A stretch of DNA of 64,000 nucleotides from Pseudomonadota bacterium (GTDB taxonomy: Bacteria > Bdellovibrionota > Bdellovibrionia > Bdellovibrionales > SG-bin7): the NCBI GenBank assembly GCA_034439715.1, contig JAWXAY010000100.1, positions 55,353 through 119,352 of the forward strand, in the 5' to 3' direction. Below, piece after piece: positions 18,001 through 27,000 of this stretch (its first letter is position 1; each line of letters starts with the position of its first letter). Position numbers: made by a program.

Positions 18001-21000
18001 AAAAAACCCGGCATTAATGAGTGCGACCCGGACGCGTGTGGCTTGACTGTATGTATATAGCGATGTGCCTCCGTCCTTCAACTCGCGAGATATCCTGCGA
18101 ATTTTTTCAAAACACTTGCTGGTCCACATCTCTTGATTCACATTTGGAGAATAGGGATCAAAGAAAATAAGGTGAGGTCTTTGAACTTCAGTAGCGATGG
18201 TTTCTAAAAATTCACCTTGGCGAAGTTCCCAAAATACTTTCTGGTTAGACCAATAGCCTTGAGTTAAGATTGCCTCAATAGCTCCCTCAAATCCCCTGAA
18301 GTGTTCAAACTTTGCTGTATGATAATGGGCAAACTTGAGAAGTTCTAAATCTCTTTCAAAACTTATGAGTCGGAGAGCACGAGTTCTAGCGCAAGATATA
18401 GCAGCAAGAGCGTTAGCCGCAGCACCTAGGCCAACATCAAATACTACTAATTCTTCAGTGGCAGATTCAGTTAAGCGCTGCTTGAGGTTAGATTGATCTA
18501 TGTAAAGTGCGTTGGCCTCAATCCAGGGGCCGACGGGATTGTGCATGATTTCGTTTACTTCGATGTTACGAATAGAAATCGCTCCAGTGGTAGTTGTTAC
18601 AATTTCAAATTTAGGATTGTCCAAGTGAATTTACCTCGAGCTTGGTCATACCACGTAAGAGCCGTTTGTAGAAAGTAAAACTCCCTTGCCAACTGCCGTC
18701 AGTTGATGCAAAAAGTCCTTTCTATGTCAAAGCTGAAAATCAAGCTGTCAAAGAGTCTTCGTAAGACCATCATGCGTGGCCACCCATGGGTTTATAAAGA
18801 AGCGATTTTGCAACCAGGAATGGTTGAGCGAGCGCAACTTTGCGAAGTTGCAGATCCTAAGGGCGAGTTTGCCTGGGCAATTTTTGATCCTCATGGCCCG
18901 CTTTCTCTTCGTATTTTGAGTACGGCAAAAGCGGCGCCCACAAATATATTTTTTGAAAAACGGTTTGTGCGCGCCTTTAATATTAGAAATAGCGTGAGGG
19001 CAGAGCACACTAATTCTTATCGTTTATTTAATGGTGAGGGAGATCTTTTGCCGGGACTTGTTTGTGATATTTATGGACCGGTAGCAGTTTTACAGTTTGA
19101 CGGACAGGGTCCTAGCGAGTTTTGGGATAAAAAGTTTGTGGCCGACTGGTTGCTCAGTCGTTCGGGATGTCAAACAGTGATTGAAAAAACTCGGCGGAAT
19201 ACGGAACGAACGACGGAACATATTGCAGGCGATTCGACTGAGAATGAAGTGCTGATCAAAGAAAATGGCGTTCATTTTAAAGTGAATATCGAAAAGGGTC
19301 AAAAGACCGGATTTTTTTTAGATCAAAGAGAGAATCGAAACCACATACGTCATTTGTGTGCCGGTAAAAGTGTGTTAAATCTTTTTAGTTATACCGGTGG
19401 TTTTTCTGTTTACGCAGGTCTTGGCGGCGCAAAACGAGTGGCAAGCCTTGATGTATCACGTGGTGCCATCAATATGGCAGAAGAAAACTGGGCGCTTAAT
19501 GGACTTGATAAATCTAAACACACAGGTCTTTGCGTTGATGTCTTTGAGTATTTAAATGGCCCACGTGAAATGTGGGACCACATTATTGTGGACCCGCCCT
19601 CGATGGGTCATGCCGAAAATCAAAGGGAAATGGCAAAATTAAAATATGTCGAACTTTTTGCGGCGGCGGCACAACGGGTAAATTCGGGAGGTGCGCTAAG
19701 TTTAAGTTCTTGCTCCAGCCATGTTTCATTTAATGATTTTTTTGAAATAGTTGATGAGGCCCTTTCAAATTCGCGAAGAACGGGGCAGATCCTGCGAGTG
19801 TCGGGTCAGGGCATTGATCATCCCTTTCCCCATGCCTGTCACGAACTTAGGTATTTAAAGTTCGTGCATTTAGTGCTTGATTAGAGTTTGCAGTCTTAAG
19901 AAAGCACCGACGGCAAACAAAGTTGCTGCTACATTACGCCCACTCTTTCGCAGTGCTTCTTTAAAAAGAAACTGGTACCTTAGAGGCAAATTCACTATTC
20001 TTTTTTTAGAGATACCTAAGGGATTTTAAATTGGATCAAGAAATATTTGAGTGGCTGCTTTTATTAGGTCGATGGCTTCATATCACTGTCGCCATGGCGT
20101 GGATTGGCGCTTCATTCTTTTTCATGTGGCTCGATCGTACGCTTCAAAATAATGAACTCTGGATGGTCCACGGCGGCGGATTTTACCAAGTTAAAAAACA
20201 TCTCATGGGTCCGACAAGGGTTCCCAATCATTTGCACTGGTTTAAATGGGAGTCGTATTGGACCTGGCTCAGCGGACTTTTTTTAGTCATTCTGGTTTTT
20301 TATACCGGTAATGGTACTTTTCTTTTAGATTCGTCGGTTTCACAGGTCACTTACTGGCAGGCCGTTGGCATAAGTGTGGCATCGATGCTGGTATCCTGGC
20401 TGTATTATGATTTTTTATGGGAAAGTAAACTTGCTAAAAATAAACCTATAGTTGGGCACTTGCTAACTTTGTTGTGGTTTGTGGGTATGTCTTACTTTTT
20501 ATGTCATACTCTCAGCGGTAGAGCTGCGTATATTCATGTTGGTGGCATGCTTGGTACCTGGATGACCGCTAATGTGTTTTTGCGAATCATTCCTCGTCAA
20601 CTTAAAATGGTTGAGGCCGCAAAGCTTGGCGAGACGGTAAATCAAGAGTGGAGCAAGAACGCTAAGAATCGATCGACTCACAATACCTATTTTACCTTAC
20701 CTGTGATTTTCATAATGCTCAGCAATCACTTTCCGATGACCTATGGTCATAACTTCAACTGGCTCATTCTATTAGTTATCAGCGCGGCTGGTGCTGCGAT
20801 TCGTGAGTATTTTGTAGTTCGTCTGCAAAACCCTATTCGTGCGAAAATATTCGCTGCCGTCGGGGTCGTGTTGATTTTGGGAGTTATGTTTTTTACCAAG
20901 CAGAAGACACTTGTTCCCATAGAAACATATTCGGCTAAAGTTTCTGTAGAAAATCTTGGTCCAACGGCAAATGTTAAAGGTGTTGTAAAGTTTGTAGGAC

Positions 21001-24000: not shown

Positions 24001-27000
24001 GTTTTTGCAAAGACGATGGCCCAAAATATATCGGTTGATTTAGCGCTGGCAGAAAAACTTATAAACAACTTTACTTTGGATGAAGTTAAGGCCGCCGCGT
24101 ATTTTCATGGTGACATTGGCGAGAATAAGAAAACACTTGATGAAATGGCATCAAATGAGCAGGCGCTGGTGCTGAATGAGGACAATAAAATTAAGTCCGA
24201 GTTAGCCGATCTTGGTTTTAAATACCTGCAAAAATTTGGAGTAAAGTTTTTAATTTCTGCAAAAAACAAATCTGGAAAAGAAATAGTGTCAGCGCTTAGG
24301 ACGCGCCTCGAAAATACGGCTTCACAAGAATTGATCAATGCCAAGTCTGCGCTTTGGGAAATTAGCCTTAAGCGATTAAAAACTCAAGCGGAGCAAAGCC
24401 TTCATCAGCAAATCGAGAGATTGCGAGCTATGCACAATATTGGAGATGCCGCAGTCAGTGTTTCATTGCCGGGGGGAAGTGGGCAATTGCTTTGTTTTGG
24501 TGGGGCGACCGAGCAAACCTGGTTTCAATATGCGTCTTTAAGTAAAACGTTGTCCAGTTGTTTTGCCGTCGAATACTTTCACAATAAAAATATTTCTCTC
24601 GATACTCCCGTGGATTCTTTGTTAGAAAAAACAGAATCTGCATTTCGCATAAAGTCTGCTGAGGTTACGCTCCGTCACCTTATGAATCACACAGCGCTAA
24701 ACATGCATTACGTCAACGGAGTGCCAACAGCAGAAAAAATGCCAAATGTACGTGAGTTGCTTGACCCGATTGTCGTGACCAATGTGCCGGGCACGAGATT
24801 TCAGTATTCTGGCGGCGGATTTCTAGTGCTCCAACATCTTATCGAAGCTTTAGAAGGAAAAACTATTGTTGAGATTACCAAAACGTTTTTTGACAAGTTA
24901 GATTTAAAAAATTTAAGCTTTGCACCAGTGCCTGCTCCTAATATGGAAAAAATGTTCCCCGCTTTTGCGGCGGGCGTCCTAGGTACTGCCACTGACATGT
25001 CGCGATTTTTAGGGTGCCTCACTGGCGCCTATAAATCGTTAGACGGCGCGGGCCCCATTTCTCATAATACTGCGATAGAGATGTTACACGGTGCAGACGT
25101 TGGAAGTTTTAAGTTCATAGGAGCAAAAATGGGGCTCGGTGTTTTTATAGCCGAAGCTGGCCCTAATCGCCTCATGTTACATCAGGGCGCGAATGATGGG
25201 TTCCGATCGGTTTTTGTTCACTGCTTTGATGGCCCCGATAGCGGCACTGGGTTTGTGGTGCTGTGCACTGGTGATTTTAATGGGGTCTTGTTTATTTCTG
25301 AAGTAGCGCAATTAATATTTAAGGAACTTAACCTAAAAGGTGTCGACACAAATAAATTTCTGAATAAATTTGAACTCTTAAATATCCCGCCTGAGGAAGT
25401 AGTCAATCGAGCCTATAAAAATTTACTGTTTGATGCCTTTGAGCCAGATTTGCCGGAAGTGATCAAACAAAAGGGCCCGCTTGACCCCCTCGCTTCAAAA
25501 AATCTCGCCGTAGGCGGTAAAATCGTAGAGACCAGCAATCAAGGCTTTGCCCGAGCTGAAAATCTTTTATCTCCGCACTTGCCGACATTTGATTCTGAGC
25601 TTTATGGCCGTCAAGGAAAAATAATGGATAGCTGGGAATCTGTACGTCATAACCCTAATTCAAACGACTATCTCATTTTTGAGTTAAAAAAACCGTCAAC
25701 AATTTCTCAGGTTTCTCTATCCACAAAATATCACCTCGGGAATCACGCTGAGGCAGTGGAAATCGAAGGTCTCGACAGTCAAGGGCAGTGGCAGAGAATT
25801 ATCGCGAAAACTGAGTTAAATGGACATGCCATTAAATTTCTCCTATCGCTGGCTAATAAATCGATTTTTACGACTATTAAAGTTTCGATGTTTCCTGACG
25901 GAGGATTAACCCGATTGGGTCTCTACAAAGATGAGCTCCCGGAACAGCCAAAAAACCAGATTTTTAGTGAAGGCATTCCTCACACTAATAAGCCGCTCAC
26001 ACCTCAGTTTAAGGGAGCACCACGTTTTTCGTCTGGCATCGAAATAGATATTGCCAGCCAGGCTTACGGCGGAAAAATAATTAGTGTGTCGAATCAGCAT
26101 TATGGTCCGGCTTCTCAAATTATTTCACCCTATCCGCCAATCAACATGTTCGATGGTTTTGAATCTGCGCGCAGTCGAGAAGCAGATCATTTCGAAGATG
26201 TGATTATTGAACTGGGTCGACCCGCAAAAATTAGCCGTATCGAAATAGATTTTACCTACTTTAAAAACAATAACCCTCGCGAATTAAGCATAGAGGGATT
26301 ATCTAAAAATGGCTGGGTTGTTTTAGTGACAAAAACAAACGTCAAAGCGTATGCCGGTAATGTGGTAGAGTTTAAGCCAAAAAATACAGAGGAGATCAAA
26401 CAAGTGAAAGTCGTGGTTTTTCCAGATGGCGGAATAAATCGGGTCAAAGTTTTTACGAGACCAGAGAAGAGACCTGAGAAGGGACCAGCAACATGAAAAA
26501 GTTACGGAGGTGGGTGATTAAGGCAGGTAGTAAAATGGTGTGCGATGGTGGTCCTCTCCTTTTACTGAGTTGGATGCGGCAAGTTGATGAGTTAAGACGC
26601 AAACATAAAATCGAAGTTATTTGGGTGACTTCAGGAGCCATTTCCTGGGCTGTGAATCGCACCAAGTTTAAAAAACTGAATCGTAAACTTCAGCAAAAGC
26701 AGGCACTAAGTGCCATTGGGCAACCGTTGGTAATGGAACAGTATAATCTGGCCCTTCATAAATTAAACCTATTGGGCTCTCAGGTTTTGTTAACAGCGGG
26801 AGACATGCGAGATCGCACTCGGCGGAGAAATTTACAAAATACGCTCAATGAAATCTTACGCTGGAAGGTCACTCCAATACTCAATGAAAATGATGCTGTT
26901 GCCACCGAAGAAATCCAGTTTGGTGACAATGATTCATTGGCCTCGCAAGTAGCCATCATGATGAAAGCCGAACGTTTGGTATTGATGACGGATGTAGACG

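Follow-up and report, generated by a model that had tools for sequence, protein, structure and literature searches.

A urate-breakdown operon in Bdellovibrionota carrying a four-module fusion protein with a candidate serine-type allantoinase

Organization of the urate operon

The window, that is, the whole 64,000-nucleotide stretch analysed, contains a urate operon with three plus-strand open reading frames (20031–21590, 21565–21915 and 21955–26496), which lie as given in the initial annotation. The first encodes a PuuD-type integral-membrane urate oxidase (519 residues long; Pfam Urate_ox_N, 342.4 bits, residues 5–287) with a C-terminal extension that reads as a cupredoxin-like motif and a carboxypeptidase-regulatory-like β-sandwich. 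The second encodes a 5-hydroxyisourate (HIU) hydrolase (116 residues; TIGR02962, 129.5 bits against a cut-off of 87.45; Pfam Transthyretin, 120.4 bits). The third, the coordinates of which include the stop codon, is a single open frame for a 1513-residue fusion protein, P0001. From the N- to the C-terminus it consists of a malate-synthase-like (MSL) module, an OHCU decarboxylase, a module with a serine β-lactamase/PBP fold (BLA) and an allantoicase.

The MSL module (21955–23934, residues 1–660) comprises a TIM barrel (Pfam MS_TIM-barrel, 229–444) and a C-terminal domain (MS_C, 515–635). The OHCU decarboxylase module (23935–24387, residues 661–811) matches positions 41–155 of the 155-position PF09349 profile with 63.6 bits (cut-off 24; residues 699–809), and scores 70.9 bits with TIGR03180, under the family cut-off. 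The BLA module (24388–25464, residues 812–1170) matches PF00144 (Beta-lactamase) at residues 820–1109 with 84.7 bits (cut-off 27). The allantoicase module (25465–26493, residues 1171–1513) is made up of two repeats, which match PF03561 in two stretches from residue 1187 (190.8 bits); its TIGR02961 score of 196.9 bits is below the cut-off of 277.9. A second Pfam run returned the domain coordinates first given for the fusion.

We compared 80 genome loci (Bdellovibrionota and nine planctomycete-type) and 80 metagenome loci. The same four modules in the same order, in one frame, recur in the loci long enough to contain them, and such frames are found in both Bdellovibrionota and Planctomycetota. 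In most of the Bdellovibrionota loci, the PuuD gene is the immediate upstream neighbour. A literature search found no publication describing this fusion or its proposed activities. Consecutive steps of urate breakdown are joined in one polypeptide in the Urah–Urad 'allantoin synthase' fusions described in a 2026 review (PMC13751858), but there, according to the review, two known enzymes are combined, whereas the fusion of the window has four modules, two of them with candidate functions only.

Purine-breakdown enzymes in the source genome

The source genome is 95.7% complete. A profile search found no AllB match above cut-off in it and no AllA match at all; PuuE is likewise missing, with the top match (20.9 bits) being a PdaB-like deacetylase. 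This bears out the initial annotation for all three families, as well as its naming of two dihydroorotases and a dihydropyrimidinase as the nearest AllB-like proteins. The top scorers on the AllB model are a dihydroorotase of the NF006559 type (672 bits on its own model, 279.5 on AllB), the TIGR02033 dihydropyrimidinase of contig 16 (603 and 276.6 bits, respectively) and the second dihydroorotase. The dihydropyrimidinase gene adjoins genes for a methylmalonate-semialdehyde dehydrogenase and a nitrilase-type amidase, which is a pyrimidine-type context. Further malate synthases A or G, isocitrate lyase, urease and urea carboxylase were also looked for, and none was found in this genome.

Structure and motifs of the BLA module

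The AlphaFold2 model of BLA has a pLDDT of 94.1, and a Foldseek search matched it to the R61 DD-peptidase, LACTB, D-amino-acid amidase and class C enzymes with TM scores of 0.65–0.70, all of them acyl-serine hydrolases. The SxxK motif is Ser861-Leu-Ser-Lys864 (24535–24546, plus strand), with Ser861 as the presumed nucleophile, and is invariant in all 36 aligned family members. So are the second-motif tyrosine and a family-specific histidine that precedes it (His918-Tyr919, 24706–24711, plus strand). The third motif, His1076-Gln-Gly (HxG, the counterpart of KTG), is followed by the family-specific residues Asn1080 and Arg1084 (25180–25206, plus strand), and its H, Q and G as well as this N and R are invariant across the 36 sequences. 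A YSGxG motif is also invariant in this alignment, unlike the asparagine of a standard YxN motif. Against the family consensus, the copy in the window shows three deletions.

BLA shares its fold, the PF00144 match and the SxxK/Tyr/HxG apparatus with S12-type serine hydrolases (R61 DD-peptidase of Streptomyces, class C β-lactamases, D-amino-acid amidase, alkaline D-peptidase, LACTB and IS11 esterase). It differs from them in having a sequence identity of merely 16–21%, in being internal to a cytoplasmic fusion, in its proposed substrate, a hydantoin ring, and in motifs: it does not keep the YxN asparagine and has its own invariant His918, YSGxG, FPxxAAG, Asn1080, Arg1084 and VN.

BLA is not restricted to the four-module protein. 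The stand-alone and allantoicase-fused forms mentioned in the initial annotation were both found: BLA–allantoicase fusions of about 750 residues in bacteria and eukaryotes, and stand-alone copies in protists, with four of 12 eukaryotic stand-alone copies ending in a PTS1-like tripeptide. Other, separate fusions join BLA to OHCU decarboxylase or to HIU hydrolase.

Distribution of BLA and known allantoinases

AllB, PuuE and AllA are all missing above cut-off from the 50 fusion-bearing genomes, two of which are complete chromosomes. Allantoicase is present in 95 of 401 sampled Bdellovibrionota genomes, and 80 of these were retained for counts. BLA without AllB occurs in 53 of the 80, AllB without BLA in 26, both in one and neither in none, where the counts include related, non-independent genomes; PuuE is absent from all 54 BLA-bearing genomes. 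Genomes of the BLA type and of the AllB type coexist inside single families (f20, f23 and f30) and even single genera (g92, g108 and g158). In AllB genomes, a stand-alone allantoicase gene directly adjoins that of AllB. The one genome with both (G320) carries AllB and a BLA–allantoicase gene at separate loci. Since BLA and MSL are nearly always co-inherited in one gene, the complementarity of BLA and AllB is in part one of fused versus unfused clusters.

Three clusters separate the two modules. An unfused cluster (L160) combines MSL with AllB, and two others (L165 and L088) combine it with PuuE; all three are devoid of BLA. This excludes MSL as the allantoinase, so that BLA is the one module still unassigned.

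The malate-synthase-like module

Aligned to Escherichia coli malate synthase A (AceB, PDB id: 3cuz), MSL keeps R228, E313, D341, W431 and D554, and the alignment bears out the original statement that Trp365 is retained. R228, E313, D341 and D554 correspond to E. coli Arg166, Glu250, Asp278 and Asp447 and are invariant. The acetyl-CoA contacts Gly96, Pro369, Met330 and Cys438 are conserved too, with Leu at Ile94 and Met or Leu at Met102, so that the sole altered contact is Thr95, replaced by Phe. The score with TIGR01344 is 136.7 bits, far below the cut-off of 594.5. Where malate synthase A has a conserved Arg276, the MSL family has an invariant tryptophan (W339). This substitution is not mentioned in the initial annotation.

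A malate-synthase-like protein of zebrafish, DrMSL, is a proven ureidoglycolate lyase, and the account of Dembech et al. 2023 (PMC10120013) describes its lyase clade as eukaryotic only. Both proteins are malate synthase homologues linked to allantoicase in which Arg276 is replaced (by Ile in DrMSL and Trp in MSL), and in operons the bacterial MSL fills the lyase position. Unlike the zebrafish enzyme, as it is described there, MSL keeps Trp365 (Met in DrMSL) and the acetyl-CoA contacts, and may for this reason be a genuine malate synthase or have both activities. MSL is also about 660–740 residues long and has both an insert and an extension at the N-terminus.

The 80 allantoicase genomes split without overlap or gap into 54 with MSL, 24 with DUF6986 and two with AllA, the last number being so small that the mutual exclusion of MSL and AllA is based on few cases. 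Ordinary malate synthase A (E ≤ 1e-60) accompanies MSL in 18 of the 54 genomes and DUF6986 in nine of the 24. Stand-alone MSL copies sit in allantoin operons that have no lyase. In L088, MSL is flanked by a hydantoin-type racemase and by ureidoglycine aminohydrolase and allantoate amidohydrolase, and the lyase is the single pathway step without a gene. An AGXT-like aminotransferase gene adjoins MSL in G320.

Proposed pathway and mechanism

From the gene anatomy, conservation, distributions and motifs observed, we infer the catalytic roles of both BLA and MSL. BLA is very likely a third, serine-type allantoinase that shares no homology with AllB or PuuE. The operon as a whole would probably convert urate to glyoxylate, possibly to malate, with BLA as the allantoinase and MSL most likely as a ureidoglycolate lyase that perhaps also forms malate. 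The initial annotation had proposed both activities. Comparative genomics strongly supports the allantoinase half, through the complementarity with AllB, three independent fusions to purine enzymes and intact serine-hydrolase motifs. The lyase half stands only in part: the partition among MSL, DUF6986 and AllA, the co-occurrence with malate synthase A and the lyase-less operons speak for it, and the retention of Trp365 and of the acetyl-CoA contacts against it. MSL could have either activity, lyase or synthase, or combine the two.

In the proposed pathway, the PuuD membrane protein would oxidize urate to 5-hydroxyisourate, which HIU hydrolase would convert to OHCU, and the cytoplasmic fusion would perform all later steps. 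Its OHCU decarboxylase module would yield (S)-allantoin, BLA would open the hydantoin ring to give allantoate, and the allantoicase module would split the latter into urea and ureidoglycolate. MSL would then handle ureidoglycolate or glyoxylate, most likely as the lyase, and might still join glyoxylate with acetyl-CoA into malate. In BLA, Ser861 might attack allantoin at its C4 carbonyl, Lys864 and Tyr919 serving as acid/base. This would form an allantoyl-serine ester with the ureido nitrogen as a tethered leaving group, comparable to the opening of a β-lactam, and water would release allantoate from the ester. His918, Asn1080 and Arg1084 could position the ureido and carbonyl groups.

We know of no enzyme of this kind that opens the allantoin ring. 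AllB (TIGR03178) catalyses the reaction here proposed for BLA, at the corresponding step of the pathway, but is a TIM-barrel cyclic amidohydrolase with a binuclear metal centre. BLA has an unrelated fold, shows no amidohydrolase signature and carries a Ser-Lys-Tyr acyl-enzyme apparatus. PuuE (TIGR03212), the second known analogue for this step and the one that accompanies MSL in L165 and L088, is metal-independent and has a polysaccharide-deacetylase fold, also unrelated to that of BLA. Searches of the 50 and of the 54 BLA-bearing genomes found it in none. If the proposed activity is correct, BLA is a non-homologous third solution for the conversion of allantoin to allantoate.

Alternative interpretations

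BLA might instead act as an amidase or esterase on a different ureide or on a side product, or it might have a regulatory, ligand-binding or scaffolding role, with allantoin opened by an unrecognized protein elsewhere. The great functional diversity of the S12/class C fold, the unconserved YxN asparagine and the presence of both AllB and BLA–allantoicase in G320 would fit such a role. We nevertheless find it improbable, because none of the 80 allantoicase genomes lacks both BLA and AllB, clusters with AllB or PuuE do without BLA, the module is placed between those that make allantoin and use allantoate, and it was fused to purine enzymes three times independently. The invariance of the catalytic Ser, Lys, Tyr and His disfavours a scaffold in particular. 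Far less probable still is that a resident cyclic amidohydrolase, either the contig 16 dihydropyrimidinase or one of the two dihydroorotases, moonlights as the allantoinase. The AllB-model scores of the dihydropyrimidinase and the NF006559-type dihydroorotase are what recommends it, yet the former has its pyrimidine-type context, and BLA-less genomes of the same genera possess a dedicated AllB. As a general explanation, moonlighting of the dihydropyrimidinase fails, since 19 of the 50 fusion-bearing genomes have no AllB-model match above 138 bits: in 17, including the complete chromosome G027, the best E-value is no better than 3.5e-40, and the remaining two give no match.

The doubt about MSL is somewhat larger. 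With BLA still the allantoinase, MSL could be a real, if divergent, malate synthase that represents a new long isoform and acts on glyoxylate and acetyl-CoA like yeast DAL7, while ureidoglycolate is split by the allantoicase module or spontaneously. Its invariant catalytic residues, Trp365 and mostly invariant acetyl-CoA contacts agree with this, as do a malate:quinone oxidoreductase gene next to the L160 cluster and two observations discussed in PMC10120013, namely that malate synthase genes occur in bacterial purine operons and that yeast has DAL7. The latter, in the yeast allantoin cluster, likewise connects purine breakdown with glyoxylate. A glyoxylate-assimilating synthase would also make physiological sense in the source genome, which has no other malate synthase, isocitrate lyase, urease or urea carboxylase, so that glyoxylate is the only usable product. 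We consider this reading unlikely all the same: one third of the MSL genomes have a separate, ordinary malate synthase A and none has AllA, every AllA-less allantoicase genome has MSL or DUF6986, the gap in L088 concerns the lyase step only, and the Trp for Arg276 and a TIGR01344 score of 137 bits against 594.5 set MSL apart from malate synthase A.

Genes downstream of the fusion

The fusion gene of the window is followed on the plus strand by proB (26493–27275; TIGR01027, 230.8 bits) and proA (27253–28521; NF001221, 526.4 bits). ProB or ProA matches occur downstream in none of the 80 genome loci, and the two genes lie outside the conserved system. Their starts overlap the preceding stops, so that here they are probably co-transcribed with the fusion operon.

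The urate operon and its fusion protein

The urate operon of the window comprises the genes of a PuuD-type urate oxidase (20031–21590, 519 aa; Pfam Urate_ox_N, 342 bits), an HIU hydrolase (HIUase; 21565–21915, 116 aa; TIGR02962, 129.5 bits against a cut-off of 87.45, with Pfam in agreement) and the fusion protein P0001 (21955–26496, 1513 aa), all at exactly the positions given in the initial annotation. The domain limits that it had assigned to P0001 recur in our Pfam search: MS_TIM-barrel 229–444 and MS_C 515–635 in the malate-synthase-like N-terminal module (MSL, residues 1–660), OHCU_decarbox 699–809, Beta-lactamase 820–1109 in the serine beta-lactamase-fold module (BLA, residues 812–1170), and two allantoicase matches from 1187. 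The OHCU decarboxylase module scores 63.6 bits on PF09349 (cut-off 24), spanning only profile positions 41–155, and 70.9 bits on TIGR03180, whose cut-off is 139.4. The allantoicase module consists of two repeats (PF03561, 190.8 bits in two stretches); its score on the TIGR02961 equivalog, 196.9 bits, is under the cut-off of 277.9 and makes it a divergent member of its family.

The published PuuD is a cytochrome c fusion. In the window PuuD (20031–21590) the CxxCH haem motif is absent, the C-terminal third carries a cupredoxin-like pattern (His ... Cys-x2-His-x2-Met) with a weak match to amicyanin (E 0.0056), and the C-terminal extension also includes a carboxypeptidase-regulatory-like beta-sandwich. 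Judged by these motifs, the electron-acceptor domain of the window PuuD may differ from that of the published one. Downstream of the fusion gene lie proB and proA (26493–28521), whose start and stop codons overlap with it and with each other. This arrangement suggests that proB and proA are co-transcribed with the urate operon in this genome alone; ProB/ProA are found downstream of the fusion at none of 80 related genome loci.

Conservation of the four-module fusion

A scan of one genome per species yielded 425 stretches encoding a relative of the N-terminal module, and the best 80 of these 425 loci were inspected. Among these 80, MSL, OHCU decarboxylase, BLA and allantoicase lie in a single frame wherever the locus is of sufficient length, and PuuD and HIUase genes are found directly upstream of the fusion in most of the Bdellovibrionota loci. 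At nine planctomycete-type loci the HIUase gene is divergent and PuuD is not within reach. Most of 80 metagenome loci are arranged like these genome loci, with frames of about 1500–1720 aa. Split forms also occur: at locus L163, MSL is followed by an unrelated small gene and then by an OHCU–BLA–allantoicase frame of 1067 aa, and two genomes (G157 and G422) have MSL frames of 730–761 aa and BLA–allantoicase frames of 777–794 aa. Its recurrence shows that the fusion is no artefact of assembly but a conserved gene, and P0001 represents a real, widespread, previously unstudied type of four-module enzyme.

Fold and motifs of the beta-lactamase-fold module

BLA scores 84.7 bits on PF00144 (cut-off 27) over residues 820–1109. 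Its AlphaFold2 model (pLDDT 94.1, pTM 0.93) has 3pte, 7v21, 2drw and class C enzymes among its Foldseek matches, with TM 0.65–0.71. The structural matches, at TM 0.65–0.70 and 16–21% identity, include R61 DD-peptidase, LACTB, the IS11 esterase, alkaline D-peptidase, D-amino-acid amidase and class C beta-lactamases. Given the confident fold and these matches to serine hydrolases, BLA is an S12-type serine hydrolase that has diverged deeply, is equipped for catalysis and lies inside a cytoplasmic protein. As a member of the PF00144/S12-like fold it stands outside both known allantoinase families, AllB and PuuE; it would work like them, but by different chemistry. An atlas look-up of BLA returned generic ‘beta-lactamase domain’ clusters only.

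The SxxK motif of BLA, S861-L-S-K864, with Ser861 as presumed nucleophile and Lys864 as presumed general base, is invariant in 36 of 36 aligned sequences, as is the pair His918-Tyr919. Tyr919 opens the second motif (YxN), whose Asn gives way to different residues (D, S, R, E, K, H, Y, P) across the family. The third motif (KTG/HxG, on strand beta-3) reads H1076-Q-G/A with His1076 and Gln1077 invariant; the corresponding motif of the R61 DD-peptidase is ‘HTG’. Further residues invariant in the 36 sequences are Tyr-Ser-Gly-x-Gly (951–955), Phe-Pro-x-x-Ala-Ala-Gly (1001–1007), Asn1080, Gly1082, Arg1084 and Val1150-Asn1151. Three stretches common in the family (about columns 201–218, 262–270 and 350–380 of alignment A3) are missing from the window copy, and because of these deletions P0001 has 1513 aa and not about 1550–1600 aa; one other genome, G353, likewise has a frame of 1513 aa. 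The catalytic motifs of the window copy are intact.

With a cut-off of E <= 1e-30, a BLA profile search of 1.84 billion cluster representatives yielded 851 proteins; the 150 highest-ranking ones have lengths of about 400–450, 740–810, about 1000 and 1400–1775 aa. The stand-alone and allantoicase-fused forms that had been proposed earlier both exist among the short relatives, together with OHCU–BLA pieces. BLA–allantoicase fusions of about 750 aa come from bacteria and from two EukProt records. A single 590-aa fusion of HIU hydrolase and BLA (P0085) was found, which makes HIU hydrolase a third pathway enzyme independently fused to BLA; the hydrophobic N-terminus of P0085 looks like a signal or transit peptide. 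Stand-alone BLA proteins of about 390–450 aa are numerous and mainly protist, with Amorphochlora, Prymnesium, Symbiodinium and Sphaeroforma among the named sources. Four of 12 inspected eukaryotic stand-alone proteins (P0072, P0079, P0068 and P0064) have short C-terminal extensions ending in ARM, AKM, CRL or ARL, which are PTS1-like tripeptides by the PTS1 consensus, as expected for peroxisomal purine enzymes.

The allantoinase gap

Profile searches of the host genome of the window (95.7% complete) bear out the earlier claim that AllB and PuuE are absent over cut-off, and the same holds for the ureidoglycolate lyase AllA. The AllB model TIGR03178 has no match over its cut-off of 357.85 bits in P0001 or elsewhere in the genome, and the top score on the PuuE model TIGR03212 (cut-off 424.6 bits) is 20.9 bits, from an unrelated deacetylase. 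The closest AllB-like proteins are, as previously noted, a dihydropyrimidinase, whose genomic context is of pyrimidine type, and two dihydroorotases. Encoded 6 kb upstream of the window, the polysaccharide deacetylase with 20.9 bits on the PuuE model is PdaB-like and was rejected as a PuuE candidate.

The gap is general. Fifty of the 80 genome loci were surveyed, chosen because their contigs measure 22 kb or more (the 30 on shorter contigs were dropped); their genomes include two complete chromosomes. None of the 50 genomes has AllB (best 284 bits against 357.85), PuuE (best 34 bits) or AllA over cut-off. A dihydropyrimidinase or dihydroorotase moonlighting as allantoinase would be compatible with the AllB-like proteins of the host genome; as a general answer it is rejected, since in 19 of the 50 genomes, complete G027 included, nothing scores above 138 bits on the AllB model.

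Of 401 Bdellovibrionota genomes that were sampled, 95 have allantoicase. Apart from the host genome there are 94 positives, of which 80 were kept; 12 that are less than 90% complete and two with single partial matches were dropped. Among these 80, 54 contain BLA (E <= 1e-20) and 27 contain AllB over cut-off; the cross-table, whose counts include related and hence non-independent genomes, reads BLA only 53, AllB only 26, both 1, neither 0. PuuE is found in none of the 54 BLA genomes. Both types occur inside families f20, f23 and f30 and genera g92, g108 and g158, so the exchange of BLA and AllB happened repeatedly. In AllB genomes, AllB adjoins a stand-alone allantoicase in operons that also carry PuuD, OHCU decarboxylase and HIUase.

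The sole genome with both, G320, has AllB and BLA at separate loci, and its BLA–allantoicase is 41% identical to the query. Its contig 12 (L171, 1–12000) carries PuuD, a BLA–allantoicase of 772 aa, an AGXT-like class-V aminotransferase, a lone allantoicase repeat (166 aa) and, on the opposite strand, an MSL of 735 aa, along with a further class-V aminotransferase. G320 has another copy of MSL on a different contig.

Could MSL rather than BLA be the allantoinase? At L160 an unfused cluster reads MSL, PuuD, AllB (516.6 bits), allantoicase, OHCU decarboxylase, a gap and HIUase, and stand-alone MSL shares its cluster with PuuE at L165 (479.8 bits) and L088 (525 bits). BLA is found in none of these three clusters. 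MSL thus accompanies known allantoinases where BLA is missing and is not the allantoinase itself. Of the modules, BLA alone has a distribution that mirrors the absence of a known allantoinase, and in P0001 it is placed between the allantoin-making and allantoate-using modules. BLA and MSL are inherited together, so that part of the BLA/AllB signal is one of fused versus unfused clusters. From the general gap, the complementarity, the elimination of other candidates and the module position, BLA is very probably the allantoinase, an assignment well supported by genomics.

The malate-synthase-like module

MSL forms a tight family, whose members in Bdellovibrionota, planctomycetes, Myxococcota and among Desulfogranum-type proteins share 50–76% identity. 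It scores 136.7 bits on TIGR01344 (cut-off 594.5), and the stand-alone MSL of L088 scores 131.7 bits. A PDB profile search with the MSL alignment found malate synthase A and did not find isoform G. Residues R228, E313, D341 and D554, invariant in 17 sequences, align to Arg166, Glu250, Asp278 and Asp447 of the malate synthase A from E. coli (PDB 3cuz), in which Arg166 is catalytic and Glu250 and Asp278 are Mg ligands. The counterpart of Trp365, W431, is invariant; that of Arg276 in the glyoxylate site is an invariant Trp339. In isoform G this position is occupied by Phe.

One paper (PMC3112382) names Asp447 as the active-site base and lists Ile94, Thr95, Gly96, Met102, Met330 and Pro369 among the acetyl-CoA contacts. 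MSL has L133, F134, G135, M/L142, M393 and P435 at these positions, five of the six kept or conservative; contact Cys438 is kept as well, and the sole changed contact is Thr95 to Phe. With these contacts kept, MSL looks able, by sequence, to bind acetyl-CoA. According to PMC10120013, the zebrafish protein DrMSL is a proven ureidoglycolate lyase with Arg276Ile, Trp365Met and loss of the acetyl-CoA site, and its clade is purely eukaryotic. Like DrMSL, MSL has Arg276 replaced (by Trp; Ile in DrMSL), but unlike DrMSL it retains Trp365 and the acetyl-CoA contacts. From malate synthase A it differs in scoring under the equivalog cut-off and in lacking Arg276. As it lacks both of these marks and, of three hallmarks of the eukaryotic lyase that were compared, shows just one, MSL is probably a clade of its own.

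MSL is present in all 53 BLA-positive, AllB-negative genomes and in G320, and AllA in two of the 80 allantoicase genomes (G091 and G331). The absence of AllA would not by itself prove MSL to be the lyase: the argument is weakened by 24 of the 26 AllB-type genomes, which are also without AllA. All of these 24 carry the family DUF6986, and the argument is re-framed accordingly: MSL (54), DUF6986 (24) and AllA (2) divide the 80 genomes among them, each genome having exactly one of the three. Ordinary malate synthase A (E <= 1e-60) occurs in 18 of the 54 MSL, nine of the 24 DUF6986 and both AllA genomes. A rule that AllA genomes have malate synthase A and DUF6986 genomes do not was true in five genomes and failed across the 80.

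At L088 (2843–14165) lies a metagenome allantoin operon without urate oxidase, with the same genes in L087. It comprises PuuE, a five-gene ABC transporter, an Asp/Glu/hydantoin racemase, MSL, ureidoglycine aminohydrolase, allantoate amidohydrolase and a GntR regulator. Its stand-alone MSL, which has 689 aa and shares 64% identity with a protein of Desulfogranum marinum, is located behind PuuE and the transporter and flanked by the racemase and the two hydrolases, and the lyase is the sole pathway step for which this operon has no gene. At L160 a malate:quinone oxidoreductase gene (10370–12001, minus strand) is found just downstream of, and convergent with, the unfused MSL–PuuD–AllB–allantoicase–OHCU cluster. 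At this single locus, the gene hints that malate is possibly a product.

These observations support in part the initial proposal that MSL is a ureidoglycolate lyase. The partition among MSL, DUF6986 and AllA, the spread of malate synthase A, the gap at L088 and the AGXT-like aminotransferases that adjoin MSL in G320 favour the lyase, whereas the kept acetyl-CoA site speaks against it. This site, the oxidoreductase gene at L160 and the contents of the host genome, which was searched and found to be without another malate synthase A or G, isocitrate lyase, urease alpha subunit or urea carboxylase, favour a malate synthase. We consider lyase activity of MSL probable and malate synthase activity about evenly balanced, with a slight lean towards its presence; that MSL has both is doubtful.

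DUF6986

In Bdellovibrionota, DUF6986 (PF22484, about 450 aa) lies within or next to purine operons of the AllB type, and the genomes that have it are precisely the 24 of this type without AllA; examples are L174:3887–5263 (minus strand) and L172:9761–11116 (plus strand). The family has at least 8000 matches at E <= 1e-10 in many phyla, under source names such as ‘citrate lyase beta subunit’ and ‘phosphoenolpyruvate kinase’, and no paper on it was found in the literature searched. Its motifs are malate-synthase-like (D-F-E-D-G, PK..E, G-x3-G-x-YDY, W-D-L-H-P, D-D-A-A-T), and some members match PF01274 or PF03328 weakly. The hhalign comparison with MSL is weak (probability 0.6% with one sequence and 28% with two alignments), and the PDB profile matches, malyl-CoA lyases, are not significant (E 0.03–0.15). 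DUF6986 is a candidate for a further enzyme of the ureidoglycolate/glyoxylate step.

Implications for purine breakdown

In the literature searched, no paper deals with an allantoinase of the serine-hydrolase kind or of any third type, with the four-module fusion or with Bdellovibrio and allantoicase. Ser-Lys ring-opening amidohydrolases that act on ureide-like rings have precedents in cyanuric acid hydrolase and barbiturase. Two allantoinase types, AllB and PuuE, are established, and the accessible part of a 2026 review (PMC13751858) mentions only metal-dependent and metal-independent allantoinases. A third type working through a serine acyl-enzyme, if true, would be a clear non-orthologous displacement and would extend beta-lactamase-fold chemistry to hydantoin rings. 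The missing allantoinase step in the purine pathway of Bdellovibrio-like predators, some planctomycetes and, probably, many protists would be filled, and the current names ‘serine hydrolase’, ‘CubicO peptidase’ and ‘malate synthase’ would be corrected.

In the most far-reaching reading, P0001 would carry OHCU to malate by way of a serine allantoinase, used also by many marine protists, and a bifunctional lyase/malate synthase, with the widespread DUF6986 as a further, compact malate-synthase-like enzyme for the same step; protist BLA would act alone with peroxisomal signals, or fused to allantoicase or HIU hydrolase. Taken as a whole, this combination is rather unlikely. Its bifunctional MSL, if true, would be a living counterpart of the ancestral malate synthase/ureidoglycolate lyase postulated by Dembech et al. 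(PMC10120013). The MSL/DUF6986 pattern makes directly testable both the end of the bacterial pathway and the descent of malate synthases and ureidoglycolate lyases from a bifunctional ancestor. Where urease is lacking, an organism would use the pathway for carbon (glyoxylate/malate) and not for nitrogen. The same operon is found on a metagenome contig (L102), where each of the six query pieces matches the window with 100% identity at the protein level, and the window stretch is present in DNA runs labelled microbial mat metagenome.
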